Below are positions 18,216 to 55,854 of a stretch of 64,000 bases of DNA, piece by piece. Numbering within the stretch: the first letter of the stretch is position 1; every line of letters begins with the position of its first letter. Below the pieces are notes generated by a model. The model saw only the letters and a list, made by a program, of their open reading frames with translations. It was not told where the DNA came from and did no database searches. The stretch is from the sequence record PQ863256.1; one strand, given 5' to 3'. A program made the position numbers and the translations under genes. Origin of the DNA: Escherichia phage Ptacy1479.

Positions 18216-19499
<1,284 letters not shown>

Positions 19500-19744
19500 A
19501 ATGCATCTCTTTATAAACAGTTTCCGTGTTCTTCTTCCAGTTAGATAAACCGGTAAGAACTCTCTGAGCAACTTCATCAGCTGCCCTACTTCTTTCAATC
19601 TCTAACTCTTGTTGATGCTTTTCTTTATCCAGATTGTTACTGTCTGTTCTGTACTCATTAAACTTCATGCCACCAAAGAATACAAGAGCTGAAAAGATAA
19701 CAAATCCTAGATTATCACTTAAAGTGCTTTGCATATTGTCTCCA

Positions 19745-19770
19745 ACGAAAAAAGCCACCCGGAGGTGGCT
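19745..19770 (-). terminator. rho-independent terminator
   Basis: - strand stem AGCCACC-TCCG-GGTGGCT followed by TTTTTTCG, directly downstream of SSB-like gene. Confidence 0.45.
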
Positions 19771-19791
19771 AAGCTATAACAAGGAGAGTTA

Positions 19792-20538
19792 TTAGAATGG
19801 GCTATCGTTGTCGTCTTCATAAGTAGAAGCAGGCTCTTTATCAATCGTAGGGATTGAAGGGGTAGCTTCTTTCTGCTCTGTTTCAGAAGCACGAGTAATT
19901 TCACGACCAGCCAGAGGCATGTTCTTAGCGTCATTAGCTTGAGTAAGCAGGTTGCGCTGGAACGGGAACATCAGTTGATAGGATGCTACGTTCTCATCGG
20001 TTTCAGCATACGGTTCGAAGAATACCAGAGGACTACGAGCTTCACCAACTGCTGCACGATATTTGGTTGGGATTGGAGAAATGGTCTTGATGGAGTTTTT
20101 AACTTCACCAGCTTTGTTAGTATAAGAGTTAACCAGAATGTTAACAGGCTGACCTAACAGAACATCCTTGAACCAAGACAGATCACCTTTCAGTGCTTGA
20201 ATGCTTGGGTCAATCATCTTGCAAAGATCAAGAATACCAGAGTTCTTAGCTCGTGGGTTTACATCATAGCTCTTGAACTGGCAAGCCGGACGTGGTTCTA
20301 ATGCCTTACCATCGGAATCTTTACCAGTAGCATCAACACCAATCAGCTCGAAAGCCAAATCCATACGGAAAGCCGGATTCTTAGGGGTTACTGCTTTGGT
20401 CTTCGGGTCAATCCAAGGGTCACGATTGTGAACACCCAAACCTACTACACGAACGATACGTGCTTCGTATTCACCATCAGGGATTACATCGTAGTTGGAT
20501 TTACGGGAAGCAGTTGCGATAGTTGGAATCATAGACAT
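19792..20538 (-). CDS. single-stranded DNA-binding protein (T7 gp2.5-like, tentative)
   Basis: 248 aa with acidic C-terminal tail ending EDDNDSPF, analogous to the acidic Phe-terminated SSB tail; located in replication block. Confidence 0.45.
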   Translation of the reverse strand: MSMIPTIATASRKSNYDVIPDGEYEARIVRVVGLGVHNRDPWIDPKTKAVTPKNPAFRMDLAFELIGVDATGKDSDGKALEPRPACQFKSYDVNPRAKNSGILDLCKMIDPSIQALKGDLSWFKDVLLGQPVNILVNSYTNKAGEVKNSIKTISPIPTKYRAAVGEARSPLVFFEPYAETDENVASYQLMFPFQRNLLTQANDAKNMPLAGREITRASETEQKEATPSIPTIDKEPASTYEDDNDSPF

Positions 20539-20597
20539 ATTGTAATTTCCTTATTTAGTTTGAAAGATTGTTGCTCTCTTTGAGCGGTTATGTATAG

Positions 20598-20606
20598 TAT
20601 ACATTA
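20598..20606 (-). promoter_or_regulatory. TAATGTATA promoter-like motif (palindromic with + strand TTATGTATA at 20588..20596)
   Basis: - strand TAATGTATACTATACAT about 55 nt upstream of SSB-like gene start. Confidence 0.35.
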
Positions 20607-20669
20607 CGCTTATACCGATAAGAGTACTATATAATATAAGTATCTTTGGTAGTAGATATAACACACTAG

Positions 20670-20678
20670 TAATGTATA
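20670..20678 (+). promoter_or_regulatory. TAATGTATA promoter-like motif on + strand inside a - strand gene region
   Basis: + strand AGTAATGTATATATTGTATAG in a 415 bp intergenic region; orientation is antisense to flanking genes. Confidence 0.3.
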
Positions 20679-21084
20679 TATTGTATAGCTGATAAAGTTA
20701 TTGCAGGCTTGTATATTGGGCAATTCACAGAATCCCTTGCAAGTACCGAAGGGCAGGAGCCACCTGCGAGATAAAAATAGAGAATTAAGGAATCCTTGAT
20801 TTAGGTTGTAGGGACTCCTAGGGACTTTGATTCTCTAATTAAAAGAATAATAATTACTTATTACCCAAATAATTAACTAACTTACTTAAACCAAATTCAA
20901 GAATAATAGATAAAAAGATTATTCCTAATAAAGCCAAGAAGTAAACAATATAAGTTACCATTCAAGTAAACCTTTAAAATTAGATTTTTCTACTATCCTC
21001 TGATAACGAAGATTAGAATCAGCTTGTTTCTTTAACATCTCATTATATTGATCTCTGATAGAGTCTTTATGAATTACAGGTTCT

Positions 21085-21588
21085 TTAAATAATGAGATCT
21101 TGTTCTTTTCTTCTTTCATCGAAAACCTTCCTAATCTCTTGCAGAGAAACAGCTTTATAATTAATTTGCTCCATTGATGTACAGAAATATCTCCAATCAT
21201 CAATTACATGATTATGTGTATGAGCATAAATATTAAACTTCCCTCTCATCTCATCAGAGTGAATAGGAATGTGAGTTATCCAAAACTCTTTATATTTATA
21301 ATCACCAGAGATTCTACGGAAGACTTTCATCATATCAGGGAGAAGTTCTAATCTGTCATGATTTCCTAAGACCAGATGTTTCTCTCCTTTTACTTCAGCG
21401 ATGATATCAAGGGCATACTTTTCAAACACCCAATCACCAGTAAAGAAAATTTTATCACGCTTAGTTACATGATCAAATGCAGCTAGAATTGCTTTGTCAT
21501 GTTCTTCGATGGTTTTAAATTGCTTACGAAAACTACAGATGTTGCGATGGCCTAAGTGACCGTCTCCTGCAAAATAAACTTCAGCCAT
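21085..21588 (-). CDS. metallophosphoesterase (calcineurin-like Ser/Thr phosphatase fold)
   Basis: Motifs GDGHLGH, GNHD and HTHNH match phosphoesterase metal-binding signatures. Confidence 0.65.
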   Translation of the reverse strand: MAEVYFAGDGHLGHRNICSFRKQFKTIEEHDKAILAAFDHVTKRDKIFFTGDWVFEKYALDIIAEVKGEKHLVLGNHDRLELLPDMMKVFRRISGDYKYKEFWITHIPIHSDEMRGKFNIYAHTHNHVIDDWRYFCTSMEQINYKAVSLQEIRKVFDERRKEQDLII

Positions 21589-21597
21589 AAAGACCTC

Positions 21598-21813
21598 TTA
21601 GATAGTACACCCATCGCAAGTTAAATCACCTAGAAGGGATAGAGAAAGTAATCTGGATTGCTCATCACTGTATAATTGATCAATCTCTTCTTTAAGTTTT
21701 GCCAACTCTGTGAAATTGATAAGTTGACCATGTTCAAGACAGTCTGTTTTTAGTATAAATAAAACTTCAGCGTCTGTTGAATCTTCACTTGAATATTTAT
21801 CAATGTATTCCAT
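21598..21813 (-). CDS. hypothetical protein
   Basis: 71 aa ORF co-oriented in operon. Confidence 0.3.
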   Translation of the reverse strand: MEYIDKYSSEDSTDAEVLFILKTDCLEHGQLINFTELAKLKEEIDQLYSDEQSRLLSLSLLGDLTCDGCTI

Positions 21814-22305
21814 TTTTACTCCTATTAATTATGACCAAGATTTAGCTTTTACTTCGACGTATGTTTTAACTTCACCTTTCAAGACTTCCTGAGAAGTCTT
21901 TGCACTTTCCTCAGAGTGATGTACAACGGTGATCTCTTTCTTTCCAATCTTATAAGTGTGAATCCAAATCATACTTCTTCCTTATATTCCCAATTTCTTT
22001 CATAATACCCAGAGTTGTAGTTTAGGGCGCACTTCTCGGCCTCTTCTATGTCGTCAGTGTTTAGGATATTTACCCATCCTCCAACTTCATCAAAACCTTC
22101 TTCTACTTCGTTAAACCATACGCTATACTTTTTCATCGAGAAGTTCTTCCCCAATCTTTTACATAGCATCGCCCGTTAACCCACTTTGTCTCTGACTTAA
22201 ACTCTTGAGACAATCTCACTTCACAGTCTTCTCTACTGGCATCTCCTCCGATATCAATCAGATATAGGAATAGGGCTATACCTAAAGACCAAAGAATTAT
22301 CTTCT

Positions 22306-23472: not shown

Positions 23473-25280
23473 TCAGAGGCCAGAGGACATTCCATGTTCA
23501 AGTACTCACCCGCTTTCTTAACACAAAGCTCAGTGTGTTCTTTGAGTTTCTGTACATCATTACGATTCACTGAGAATTGGCCCTCATCATGCATATCAAT
23601 TACCTTAGCACAACGAACCCCATCCCTCTCAATCCACTTGTTTAGGAACATCATAGCATATTTCATAACAACAGCACCAGCACATTGCAGTAGAGTGTTA
23701 AGTGCTTTATGAACCATAACCTTACCAGTGGCATCTCGTCTCATTGTAATCTTACGACCATCAACACCAATCAAGTATCCTTGAGCAGCTTTCTCTGTCA
23801 TACGATCAATGAGGATTGCAATACATGGGTTCTCTGCCAAGAAACGTGCTCGCATCACTGAACCTTCTTCAGCCCCACCACCTACAATTGAACCAAGCTT
23901 AGCGTCGCCAGCACCGTAGTTGAATGCATAGATAAATGTTTTAGCGTTGTCACGAGTAGGAAGACCAGCAAGTTTCTGGTTATGGGAGTGGATATCACCT
24001 TCAAGGAGAATATCACGATACATAATAGCAGAAGCTAAACCACGTTCTGCCAGAGCTTTCTTAGCCGGATTGTTCTCTTCAATTGCCTCAGCAAGCATAT
24101 CTCTACACTCTTTAATGAGGTAGTGAGCGAGCATACGAAGTTCAAGTCCAGAACCATCATACCCTAAGAATACTTCTTTACCAGCGGGTATGTAATATTT
24201 GTAAGCACCTACAGGTTTGTCTTTCTTCCTCGGCTTACCTTTCTCATAAATTACGTTAGTACCTTTTCGTATATAACAACCATCAGGAACAACGTTAGTA
24301 ATAACGAAAGGACGAGAATGATCACTGTCTGAGTTATAGTCAGACTCAAACAAACTGCGACACTCGTGACCAAACAAACCACGGGAGGGAATATTAACCA
24401 CGATACGATGTTTGAATCGAAAAGTTGGCGTAGCGCAGCTGTTAGCTTCTGCCGAAAGTTTACCATCTTCGCGTTCCTTTGCTATGAGTCCACTGATAAG
24501 ACCTAGCCTGTGAGCCGCTACAACGCGTCTCTTAAGCAAACTTCCGACACTCCCTAGATCACCCCCTAGCCCCTCTTCAAGAGTCTCCTCGAGGTTTGTA
24601 GGAGCTGTAGGCCACTTATTTGATGTGGCTAGTGCTTTCTTAATCTCATCAAACGTTACAGGATTACGGCGATTAGGGTTCAATCCCAAACCAAATACGT
24701 AAGCCTTCATATAGTTCTTAGTTTTAAACCTGAAATGCTTTTCTAAGAACTTCTTAATATCAGCGTCAACCATCTCGGCTGTCTGCTTTTGCTTAGCATT
24801 GCCTCTCATCCAAGCAGTATACCATGCTTGGTATGTTCCATACTTTCGCATATCTTTCTTAATTTCGAAAGTATTCCAAGGTTTCTTAGATACGTTAAAC
24901 TCTGGAGGAAGAAAGCCCTCATCCATAAGAGCCTCTTTAACTCGTGCATCTTTCGATGGGTCAAAGTCTACGTATTCGACACAGGTGAATGCTCCACCAA
25001 TATCTTCTCTCTTCAGCCCAACCCTATCACAATAGGCTTGAGGCCACTTCTGTAAAGCTCCAGACTTCTTAAACGGCTTCATGTAAGTAGAGCCATCTAA
25101 TCTCATCTTAGGTAAGAGAGGAATCAACTCTCTGTCAATATTAACAATAATCTCTTTAAGGAGGTGAACATACCACCGAGCATTTCTTCGGTTGAAACTC
25201 ACTCCGTGCTTTGCTTGCTTAGAGATTATATCAGCGACAGTCATCTCTGTCAAAAATGGAAGAGCGTCCGGGTTGCTCAC
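23436..25280 (-). CDS. DNA polymerase family A, polymerase domain only (split polymerase, part II)
   Basis: Motif A GYDGSGLELRMLAHY, motif B RDNAKTFIYAFNYGAG, motif C IDMHDEG; no exonuclease motifs in this ORF. Confidence 0.85.
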   Translation of the reverse strand: MSNPDALPFLTEMTVADIISKQAKHGVSFNRRNARWYVHLLKEIIVNIDRELIPLLPKMRLDGSTYMKPFKKSGALQKWPQAYCDRVGLKREDIGGAFTCVEYVDFDPSKDARVKEALMDEGFLPPEFNVSKKPWNTFEIKKDMRKYGTYQAWYTAWMRGNAKQKQTAEMVDADIKKFLEKHFRFKTKNYMKAYVFGLGLNPNRRNPVTFDEIKKALATSNKWPTAPTNLEETLEEGLGGDLGSVGSLLKRRVVAAHRLGLISGLIAKEREDGKLSAEANSCATPTFRFKHRIVVNIPSRGLFGHECRSLFESDYNSDSDHSRPFVITNVVPDGCYIRKGTNVIYEKGKPRKKDKPVGAYKYYIPAGKEVFLGYDGSGLELRMLAHYLIKECRDMLAEAIEENNPAKKALAERGLASAIMYRDILLEGDIHSHNQKLAGLPTRDNAKTFIYAFNYGAGDAKLGSIVGGGAEEGSVMRARFLAENPCIAILIDRMTEKAAQGYLIGVDGRKITMRRDATGKVMVHKALNTLLQCAGAVVMKYAMMFLNKWIERDGVRCAKVIDMHDEGQFSVNRNDVQKLKEHTELCVKKAGEYLNMECPLASDCQIGLNWMHTH

Positions 25281-26951: not shown

Positions 26952-26987
26952 TTAAAACTCCTTAATATATCAGTGTACACTAAGGAG

Positions 26988-55369: not shown

Positions 55370-55655
55370 TGTTAATCTCCTGCTGCTTAGCAATAGCTAC
55401 TCGCAAGTCTTCATTAGCACGAGCAAGGCGTAATACTTCATGATTAAGGCTCTGAAGACGCTTATTTCTGTCTTCAACTTGCATAATAAGATCGTTAAGT
55501 GTTACTTTAACTTTCTCATTGTACATCTCGTCCACTCGGACTAGGGATTTATACATTCTCTCCCAGCTTGCTGCTTTGTTTCTGAGAACAATAAACCCTA
55601 TAACGCTGATAGTTAAACAGAGTACAAAAAGGAATTTATATACCTCTAAAGTCAT
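55359..55655 (-). CDS. membrane-anchored coiled-coil protein
   Basis: N-terminal TM FLFVLCLTISVIGFIVL followed by heptad-rich segment. Confidence 0.4.
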   Translation of the reverse strand: MTLEVYKFLFVLCLTISVIGFIVLRNKAASWERMYKSLVRVDEMYNEKVKVTLNDLIMQVEDRNKRLQSLNHEVLRLARANEDLRVAIAKQQEINNEA

Positions 55656-55854
55656 ATTATTTACCCTTTATCAGAGATTAAAAGTAATATTATTTAAGTA
55701 AGTTATATTTAGTAAACTTATTTTCTAAGAAATTTTCAAAGGGTCTATATACAGAGCATTACCCATAGTCCCAGAATACTACCATCTTTTTCAATAAATT
55801 TACTAAGTGGTTGGTTTATAAAGGAATTTAGTTTGTCAAATCTGGCACTAGTGA

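Follow-up and report, generated by a model that had tools for sequence, protein, structure and literature searches.

We examined the region upstream of gene 40, which encodes a single-stranded DNA-binding (SSB)-like protein, in Escherichia phage Ptacy1479 (PQ863256.1); the window is the whole stretch of 64,000 nucleotides that was analysed. Judged by its sequence, the window belongs to Kuravirus and is phiEco32-like. Over bases 19500-22000 it shares 94-98% identity with about 100 phages of Escherichia and Shigella that belong to the phiEco32 group, from the genera Kuravirus, Suseptimavirus and Nieuwekanaalvirus of the subfamily Gordonclarkvirinae. From 16.8 kb onward all genes of the region are carried by the minus strand, and the locus is surrounded by a block of replication genes comprising the SSB-like gene 40, an exonuclease and a DNA polymerase. 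The gap upstream of gene 40 holds the known leftward promoter P40 and, on the opposite strand, a predicted promoter that we call PR, which would direct transcription against the operon into a conserved region that probably encodes a structured non-coding RNA. The genes and promoter elements of the locus are the following.

19792-20538, minus strand: SSB-like gene, homologue of phi32_40 (gene 40), start ATG at 20538
20539-20591, minus strand: predicted 5' untranslated region of gene 40, 53 nt, from the P40 start at about 20591 to the ATG at 20538
20588-20606, no strand: near-palindrome TTATGTATA-G-TATACATTA; the right arm is the P40 element, the left arm the first transcribed P40 bases
20598-20606, minus strand: P40 -10-like element TAATGTATA, predicted start A at 20591
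20609-20622, no strand: inverted repeat CTTAT-ACCG-ATAAG in the P40 spacer, -18 to -31; CTTATACAGATAAG in SU7-type relatives
20646-20659, plus strand: PR -35 element TTGGTAGTAGATAT, with -37G at 20648 and -34A at 20651
20670-20680, plus strand: PR -10-like element TAATGTATATA, a full match to the extended consensus tAATGTATAtA
20854-20961, minus strand: 35-codon open reading frame (ORF), homologue of phi32_41, annotated as phi32_41 in phiEco32 and matching a PHROG family

Gene 40 receives no function from PHROGs or Pfam and is named ssDNA-binding protein in one GenBank record. An earlier note, made from the letters of this locus, had described a 415-bp intergenic region upstream of the gene, with no ORF between 20690 and 20950. 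The region contains the 35-codon minus-strand ORF at 20854-20961, which leaves 20539-20853 as the part that is surely non-coding. The second statement holds for conserved ORFs of the plus strand; besides the minus-strand ORF, 20690-20950 contains a single plus-strand ORF of 32 codons with a TTG start (20701-20799), which is frameshifted in relatives.

phiEco32 is a model of transcription by a phage-encoded minimal sigma factor, gp36, for which a recent cryo-electron microscopy (cryo-EM) structure of the open complex was determined on the promoter P68. Six gp36 promoters are recorded for phiEco32 in the papers that report them, the late promoters P6, P13 and P26 and the middle promoters P40, P58 and P68 (PMC4281155, PMC8948821), and each recorded promoter bears the name of the gene 3' of it. 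The published element, tAATGTAtA(tA), lies 6-8 nt 5' of the start site with the centre of AATGTA at -11.5 (PMC4281155, PMC12276001, PMC8948821). At P68, -37G and -34A are contacted by gp36 residues R187 and Y186, and mutating these bases kills activity (PMC12276001). Cryo-EM and mutagenesis identified E79, H80, Y83, W90, Y186 and R187 as the residues that read promoter DNA (PMC12276001). The gp36 ORF of the window (18595-19239, minus strand) is 100% identical to phiEco32 gp36 over 214 amino acids and has all six of these contact residues. The cognate sigma factor is thus encoded in the same genome. Throughout, AATGTA is set at -14 to -9 and start sites are placed from promoter geometry.

The motif TAATGTATA of the locus is this published gp36 element. 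In its degenerate form TWATGTATA it occurs five times in the 64-kb window against 1.39 expected, a count that none of 100 shuffles reached; one further variant belongs to a P68-like promoter.

11225 (plus), 20588 (plus), 20598 (minus), 20670 (plus) and 26988 (minus): TWATGTATA sites
32088, minus strand: AAATGTATA, P68-like promoter

Together these sites make up the P26-like, P40, P58-like and P68-like promoters and two plus-strand copies, at 20588 and 20670. The five good promoters in the window all have A at -14 and at -34; P40 and the P58-like and P26-like promoters combine -34A with -37A.

The plus-strand copy at 20670-20678 reads TAATGTATA and is part of an arrangement, TTGGTAGTAGATAT-N11-AATGTATATA, that closely follows the P68-like promoter of the window (32113-32080, minus strand). 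All 14 bases of the -35 element are the same, and so is the 11-nt gap to AATGTA/AATGTATATA. The pattern TGGTAGTA-N(10-20)-TAATGTATA is found once in the window against 0.00 expected. In 27 distinct sequences, drawn from 40-odd genomes and contigs of Kuravirus, Suseptimavirus and Nieuwekanaalvirus, the core elements TGGTAGTA and TAATGTATA show no variation, and the distance between them is constant. The 10-nt spacer between them (20660-20669) is only 30-50% identical to the window in SU7, EP335, SR02, KBNP1711 and 4E8, and in the same comparison with these five relatives the -10 element is conserved at 11 of 11 positions and the -35 element at 13 of 14. Conserved elements around a variable spacer are the signature of a two-element promoter under selection. 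We therefore regard PR as a probable complete gp36-type promoter of the two-element type of P68. It would be an unlisted seventh promoter of a class known from phiEco32, in which P40 is already recorded. PR is missing from the six published gp36 promoters as these are given in two later papers summarizing the original mapping (PMC4281155, PMC8948821), and it is unannotated in every sequence record inspected.

PR resembles the established gp36 promoters in its tAATGTATAtA element, in the -35 element and spacing of P68 and in an identical sigma factor, and the minus-strand copy beside it is P40 itself. It differs from them in being outside the published six, known as a prediction only, and in having no gene ahead. 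Unlike P40, PR has no plus-strand gene downstream, the sole ORF there being the unconserved 32-codon TTG frame. It is alone in this respect among the gp36-class promoters of the window, and it is oriented against the whole middle operon. The predicted starts of P40 and PR are 94 bp apart. In myPSH1131 (505-648) and three further relative sequences, an insertion of about 150 bp lies between P40 and PR; it contains a 47-codon minus-strand ORF (MKFNHKYAATEKARAYV...) whose ATG overlaps the PR -35 element. No dedicated promoter accompanies this ORF, implying that minus-strand transcription reads through the RNA region.

The predicted start of PR is the A at 20685, and a region of about 155 nt without a conserved ORF follows, to about 20840. 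The parts of the predicted RNA, and the AT-rich tract beyond it, are these.

20685-20701, plus strand: P1 hairpin AUAGCU-GAUAA-AGUUAU, beginning at the predicted +1
20702-20744, plus strand: central domain, class A version, varying mainly in a predicted loop
20745-20840, plus strand: nearly invariant 3' domain, made up of ACCGAAGG, a GC hairpin, an A-rich linker and a long imperfect hairpin
20753-20767, plus strand: GC hairpin GCAGG-AGCCA-CCUGC
20768-20778, plus strand: A-rich linker
20779-20836, plus strand: long imperfect hairpin of 58 nt, containing the TAGGGACT direct repeat
20809-20826, plus strand: the two copies of the direct repeat TAGGGACT
20836-20985, no strand: AT-richest 150 bp of the whole window (80% AT), directly 3' of the hairpin and overlapping the ORF at 20854-20961

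Two base pairs of P1 show compensatory double changes, U-A<->G-C in one and C-G<->A-U<->U-A in the other. A further G-C<->G.U exchange is seen in 10 of 22 sequences, and G.U pairing is possible on the plus strand alone. Because P1 covaries with G.U pairs, selection appears to act on the RNA itself. The central domain comes in two forms. In 12 Kuravirus records the class A version is replaced by an unrelated 69-nt module with hairpins of its own (class B), one stem of which shows one U-A<->C-G compensatory change; the predicted RNA is about 155 nt long in the window and 184-188 nt in these class B relatives. P1 types and module classes are reshuffled, as in SR02 and MN05, which have the same P1 type and different module classes.

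The 3' domain is the best conserved stretch of 1.25 kb, with a mean pairwise identity of 97-98% compared with 63-95% in flanking coding sequence. The central and 3' domains share 97-98% identity with those of EP335 and KBNP1711, compared with 76-83% for the coding DNA on both sides. The few changes in the 3' domain are indels in loops or bulges, substitutions in loops and one A-U->G-U. We consider the predicted RNA, which is probably structured, a candidate for a new family. The earlier note had suggested that the copy at 20670 drives a non-coding or antisense-oriented transcript to the right, and the comparative evidence strongly supports this prediction through the P68-type -35 element, the invariance across three genera and the conserved ORF-free region with its covarying hairpin.

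Some details of the RNA region vary. In the lineage of Paul, XT32, TH42, NC-B, E20-1 and ECBP2 both TAGGGACT repeats have a shorter G-run (GAGGACT, TAGGACT), a concerted change for which none of the folds tested accounts. At 20838 the window has an A, unique to it, in place of the consensus T (TCTCTAATT as against TCTCTATTT), which costs the long hairpin an A-U pair at its base. The gene content of the AT-rich tract 20836-20985 differs among relatives. A small protein was considered and rejected on both strands: the plus-strand ORF 20701-20799 has a frameshift in relatives of the SU7 type and gives way to other sequence in class B, and no minus-strand ORF lies beneath the invariant 3' domain. 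A pseudoknot between a CCC of the class A loop and the GGG of the repeats was dropped, as judged by eye the run lengths do not co-vary.

The near-palindrome at 20588-20606 reads TTATGTATAGTATACATTA, and its arms agree at 8 of 9 positions about a central G; this sequence and that of the rightward copy at 20670-20678 are as the earlier note gave them. The minus arm is the known middle promoter P40 of gene 40. The reverse complement of 20570-20610 is letter-identical to the middle promoter aagcgtaatgtatactatacataaccgctcaaagagagcaa of SU10, recorded there between CDS37 and CDS38. It follows that the plus arm TTATGTATA (20588-20596) is the first transcribed bases of P40 read backwards. A promoter formed by the plus arm would carry T at -14, where it departs from the gp36 element, and T at -34, and in Suseptimavirus/ECBP2-type relatives (SU7, ECBP2, Bas88-type) the arm reads TTTGTATAC or TTGGTATAC. 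Because of these two bases and the lack of conservation of the left arm, the plus arm is probably not a promoter, and the suggestion of a bidirectional element is not supported. Near-palindromes of like quality number 9 in the window against 8.7 expected; the non-random aspect is that this one coincides with a promoter motif.

Downstream of the P40 start, the leader of gene 40 contains a block, AAGATTGTTGCTCTCTTTGAGCGG (20564-20587), that is kept in all aligned Gordonclarkvirinae, with one base different in EP335 and KBNP1711. It holds a small hairpin, GCUC-AAAGA-GAGC, in the minus-strand mRNA. By analogy with T4 gene 32, translation of the SSB-like gene could be controlled through this block. 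The Crifsvirus phages A24 and ECO319P1, in which gene 40 has about 41% protein identity, still carry TAATGTATA about 70 nt upstream of gene 40 (at 1368-1384 of the A24 sequence), in contrast to published statements that phages of the GAP52/7-11 type are without the gp36 motif.

The reading we favour, to which we assign a probability of roughly 0.55, is that two back-to-back gp36 promoters fire in opposite directions and that the PR RNA acts as a countertranscript like that of lambda pO/oop. During the middle phase, E. coli RNA polymerase with gp36 would fire leftward for gene 40 and rightward for the RNA, probably with the help of gp79 at PR, as at P68. Transcription from about 20685 would yield a non-coding RNA of about 155 nt, laid out as a protective 5' hairpin, an exchangeable central module and the almost invariant 3' domain. 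Being made against the flow of the whole middle operon, this RNA would have to meet read-through transcripts from P58 and P68, to which it would be fully complementary. In this role, the simplest and in our view the most likely, the RNA may insulate or tune expression where gene 41 adjoins gene 40. It would act by promoter interference and by pairing, for which pO/oop is the precedent (PMC3985674). A countertranscript alone does not explain the invariant 3' domain, which makes a specific partner likely, and we think it likely from the conservation pattern that the 3' domain also binds one. The sequences show promoter determinants, conservation, hairpin covariation and a lack of coding capacity; the divergent firing and the countertranscript role are what we infer.

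Like PR, lambda pO faces the main operon beside replication genes and makes a short non-coding transcript, and in both cases convergent transcription and pairing with read-through mRNA would be unavoidable (PMC3985674; PMC5869508). The oop RNA is 77 nt long, stops at a clear intrinsic terminator and extends over the 3' end of cII (PMC3985674; PMC5869508). In contrast, the PR RNA would be about twice as long and, by prediction, dependent on a phage sigma factor; it has no canonical terminator and no sequence similarity to oop, and its conserved part lies outside coding sequence. The conserved RNA extends to about 20840, and the closest ORF of the minus strand has its stop at 20854, so that any overlap depends on the 3' end of the RNA.

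Several points weigh against the countertranscript reading. The activity of PR, its start site and the 3' end of its RNA are all derived from sequence. Between 20300 and 21300 the plus strand showed no intrinsic terminator, and none up to 27500 was convincing, which makes a discrete 155-nt species an assumption; the long hairpin is followed by just AUUUAAAA on the plus strand. Covariation is seen nowhere but in P1 and one class B stem, and the invariant 3' domain neither backs nor opposes any given fold. The folding advantage of the plus strand (mean 7 kcal/mol) is largely compositional, with Z-scores alike on both strands. We rejected folding energy as a means of choosing the strand: the plus strand always folds better, yet shuffled controls differ similarly. 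A plain cis-antisense role fails to explain why the 3' domain is conserved above the neighbouring proteins. Complementarity to other phage transcripts is not above chance (10-12-mers). Finally, the unlisted status of PR is taken from the two papers that summarize Pavlova 2012.

The same observations admit other explanations. The RNA might act in trans by binding a protein, as a host-factor decoy or sponge, an anti-defence RNA or a polymerase regulator, with the 3' domain as the binding surface and the antisense position irrelevant. We consider this unlikely, although it accommodates the extreme conservation of the 3' domain above the neighbouring proteins, the confinement of variation to loops and bulges, the modular build with an exchangeable central domain and a 5' hairpin of the kind typical for stable RNAs. 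It could also draw on four A(N)GGA motifs, with the paired TAGGGACT repeats both changed to AGGACT in one lineage, and, circumstantially, on the Gordonclarkvirinae being reportedly unusually resistant to defence systems. Against it, the RNA matches no Rfam family and resembles no E. coli or GTDB sequence, the GGA count is about twice expectation on a rough estimate, and both the partner and accumulation of the RNA are conjectural. Somewhat less probable in our view is a transcription-primed replication origin, in which PR sends polymerase into the AT tract 20836-20985, the transcript opens the duplex or primes DNA polymerase, and the conserved 3' domain governs hybrid formation or replisome loading. 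The T7 primary origin combines the phage promoters phi1.1A and phi1.1B with an AT-rich region, and T4 ori(uvsY) and ori(34) a middle promoter with an unwinding element. Here a predicted phage-specific promoter inside the replication gene cluster likewise precedes the region's most AT-rich DNA: directly 3' of the hairpin lie the 150 bp with the highest AT content in the window and one of its two AT-richest 100-bp stretches, no plus-strand terminator intervenes, and PR is the lone gp36-class promoter that has no gene ahead and faces the whole operon. However, about 150 nt of conserved structured RNA separate PR from a tract that begins 150 nt from its start, largely coincides with a small annotated ORF and differs from relative to relative in content and length, whereas the structured part is the conserved part; T7 and T4 origins need no such RNA. 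The P1 covariation with G.U points to selection on RNA, and there is no GC-skew switch at 20.7 kb; the skew tracks gene orientation and transcription alone and was discarded as an uninformative origin marker. ColE1 RNA II, with its opposing transcript RNA I, is a structured, promoter-driven non-coding RNA whose fold matters. The PR RNA is likewise predicted to be structured, promoter-driven and linked to an opposing transcript, but there is no homology, the setting is a lytic phage rather than a plasmid, and a primer role here is conjectural. A broader version of these ideas, which we hold as a tentative possibility clearly below even odds, is that PR makes an abundant, structured, gp36-dependent RNA needed for normal infection, whether as a primer or activator of the phiEco32-group origin or as a protein-binding decoy for a host factor or defence system, and that it represents a new family confined to the E. 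coli Gordonclarkvirinae with class A/B as its exchangeable specificity module.

The conserved structure could instead serve the minus strand, as a terminator or an RNase III-type processing site between gene 41 and gene 40, with PR incidental or modulating. T7-type RNase III processing hairpins occur in polycistronic phage mRNAs, and the long imperfect intergenic hairpin of about 58 nt is likewise kept between relatives. It lies exactly between two co-oriented genes and just 5' of an internal promoter, is followed on the minus strand by AUUUUUAU, a better U-tract than that of the plus strand, and in several relatives gives minus-strand folding Z-scores comparable to those of the plus strand. 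We nevertheless judge this reading improbable. Unlike the T7-type hairpins, this one has its own predicted upstream promoter and wobble pairs that favour the strand opposite the mRNA: the invariant U.G/G.U pairs, the A-U->G-U change in the long hairpin and the G.U of P1 would all be A.C mismatches on the minus strand. The terminator scan was negative on both strands, and published annotations put terminators elsewhere. Terminators usually tolerate sequence change, whereas this domain is 97-98% identical, and an invariant, correctly spaced promoter with a covarying hairpin at its +1 would go unexplained. Least probable of all we rate the idea that the dyad at 20588-20606 is an operator through which a dimeric regulator silences P40, or a true bidirectional promoter. 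The dyad does cover -15 to +4 of P40, the classical operator position; it is kept in Kuravirus and Nieuwekanaalvirus with the centre base alone varying, and the chance that a given promoter precedes its own inverted copy should be small. But just 6-nt arms with altered spacing are left in Suseptimavirus/ECBP2-type phages, the Crifsvirus P40 homologue sits in a different dyad, ACACTAATGTATAGTGT, with another centre, comparable near-palindromes occur at chance frequency, the plus arm is without -14A and -34A as a promoter, and no candidate repressor was identified. Of the interpretation offered in the earlier note, the rightward copy has strong comparative support and the bidirectional palindrome is not supported; the operator role is possible but without support, and its geometry is unconserved in Crifsvirus.

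A seventh, P68-type promoter that faces the operon and feeds an RNA conserved above the surrounding proteins would bring a non-coding component into the gp36 program, and the locus would be the first candidate antisense regulator or replication origin in the phiEco32 group. Phages of the phiEco32 type are common in nature and used in therapy studies, and have been described as poorly studied. We see the candidate as a well-supported extension of a model transcription system that can readily be tested, and not as a new principle.

The PR-RNA segment is covered in 98 of the 98 phage records that match a 451-nt intergenic query. A separate search gave 98 records with a gene 40 at least 80% identical, which we assume to be the same records. 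PR and the RNA were not found in the seven distant relatives examined (four Grimontviridae phages and three IMG/VR contigs), which have just 75-145 bp upstream of the gene 40 homologue, and a scan of IMG/VR and metagenomes for distant copies returned the same phage group alone. Rfam covariance models gave no relevant match at E<=10 for the window region and four relatives. ARAGORN detected no tRNA or tmRNA at the locus, its sole match in the window being a tRNA-Arg at 51.5 kb. Likewise, blastn against 5,426 E. coli genomes returned no match to the RNA region, GTDB genomes contained no exact match to the core, and in the literature we found no RNA-seq of a phiEco32-like phage. Matches of the class B module to ICP1, outside the 12 Kuravirus records, were rejected as chance (E=0.5). 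Likeness to domain IV of the signal recognition particle RNA was dismissed by eye, class A having no GGAA loop and different stems, as was likeness to CRISPR repeats; neither has an Rfam match.

Further features were seen elsewhere in the window and in relatives. The P58-like promoter has a perfect palindrome, AGTGTACACT, at its predicted start (26972-26981, minus strand), and small 5' hairpins are possible on the P68-like (32060-32075) and P40 transcripts too; 5'-terminal hairpins may be a general feature of gp36 transcripts. The other 100-bp stretch with the highest AT content in the window (82% AT) lies at 55633-55732. An HNH homing endonuclease gene is found just 3' of gene 40 in WFI101126 (3294-3707 of the sequence compared), SU10 and others, and is missing from the window at this position (about 19780). 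SU7 is 82% identical to the window in gene 40 and 95-97% in gene 42 and the phosphoesterase gene, a mosaicism that makes the intergenic RNA region a recombination boundary. At 25225-25253 on the minus strand, the window contains a sigma-70 promoter that matches the consensus perfectly (TTGACA-17-TATAAT plus the extended -10 TG, 12 of 12 positions) and falls within the opening 55 nt of the ORF for DNA polymerase, which starts with GTG at 25280.

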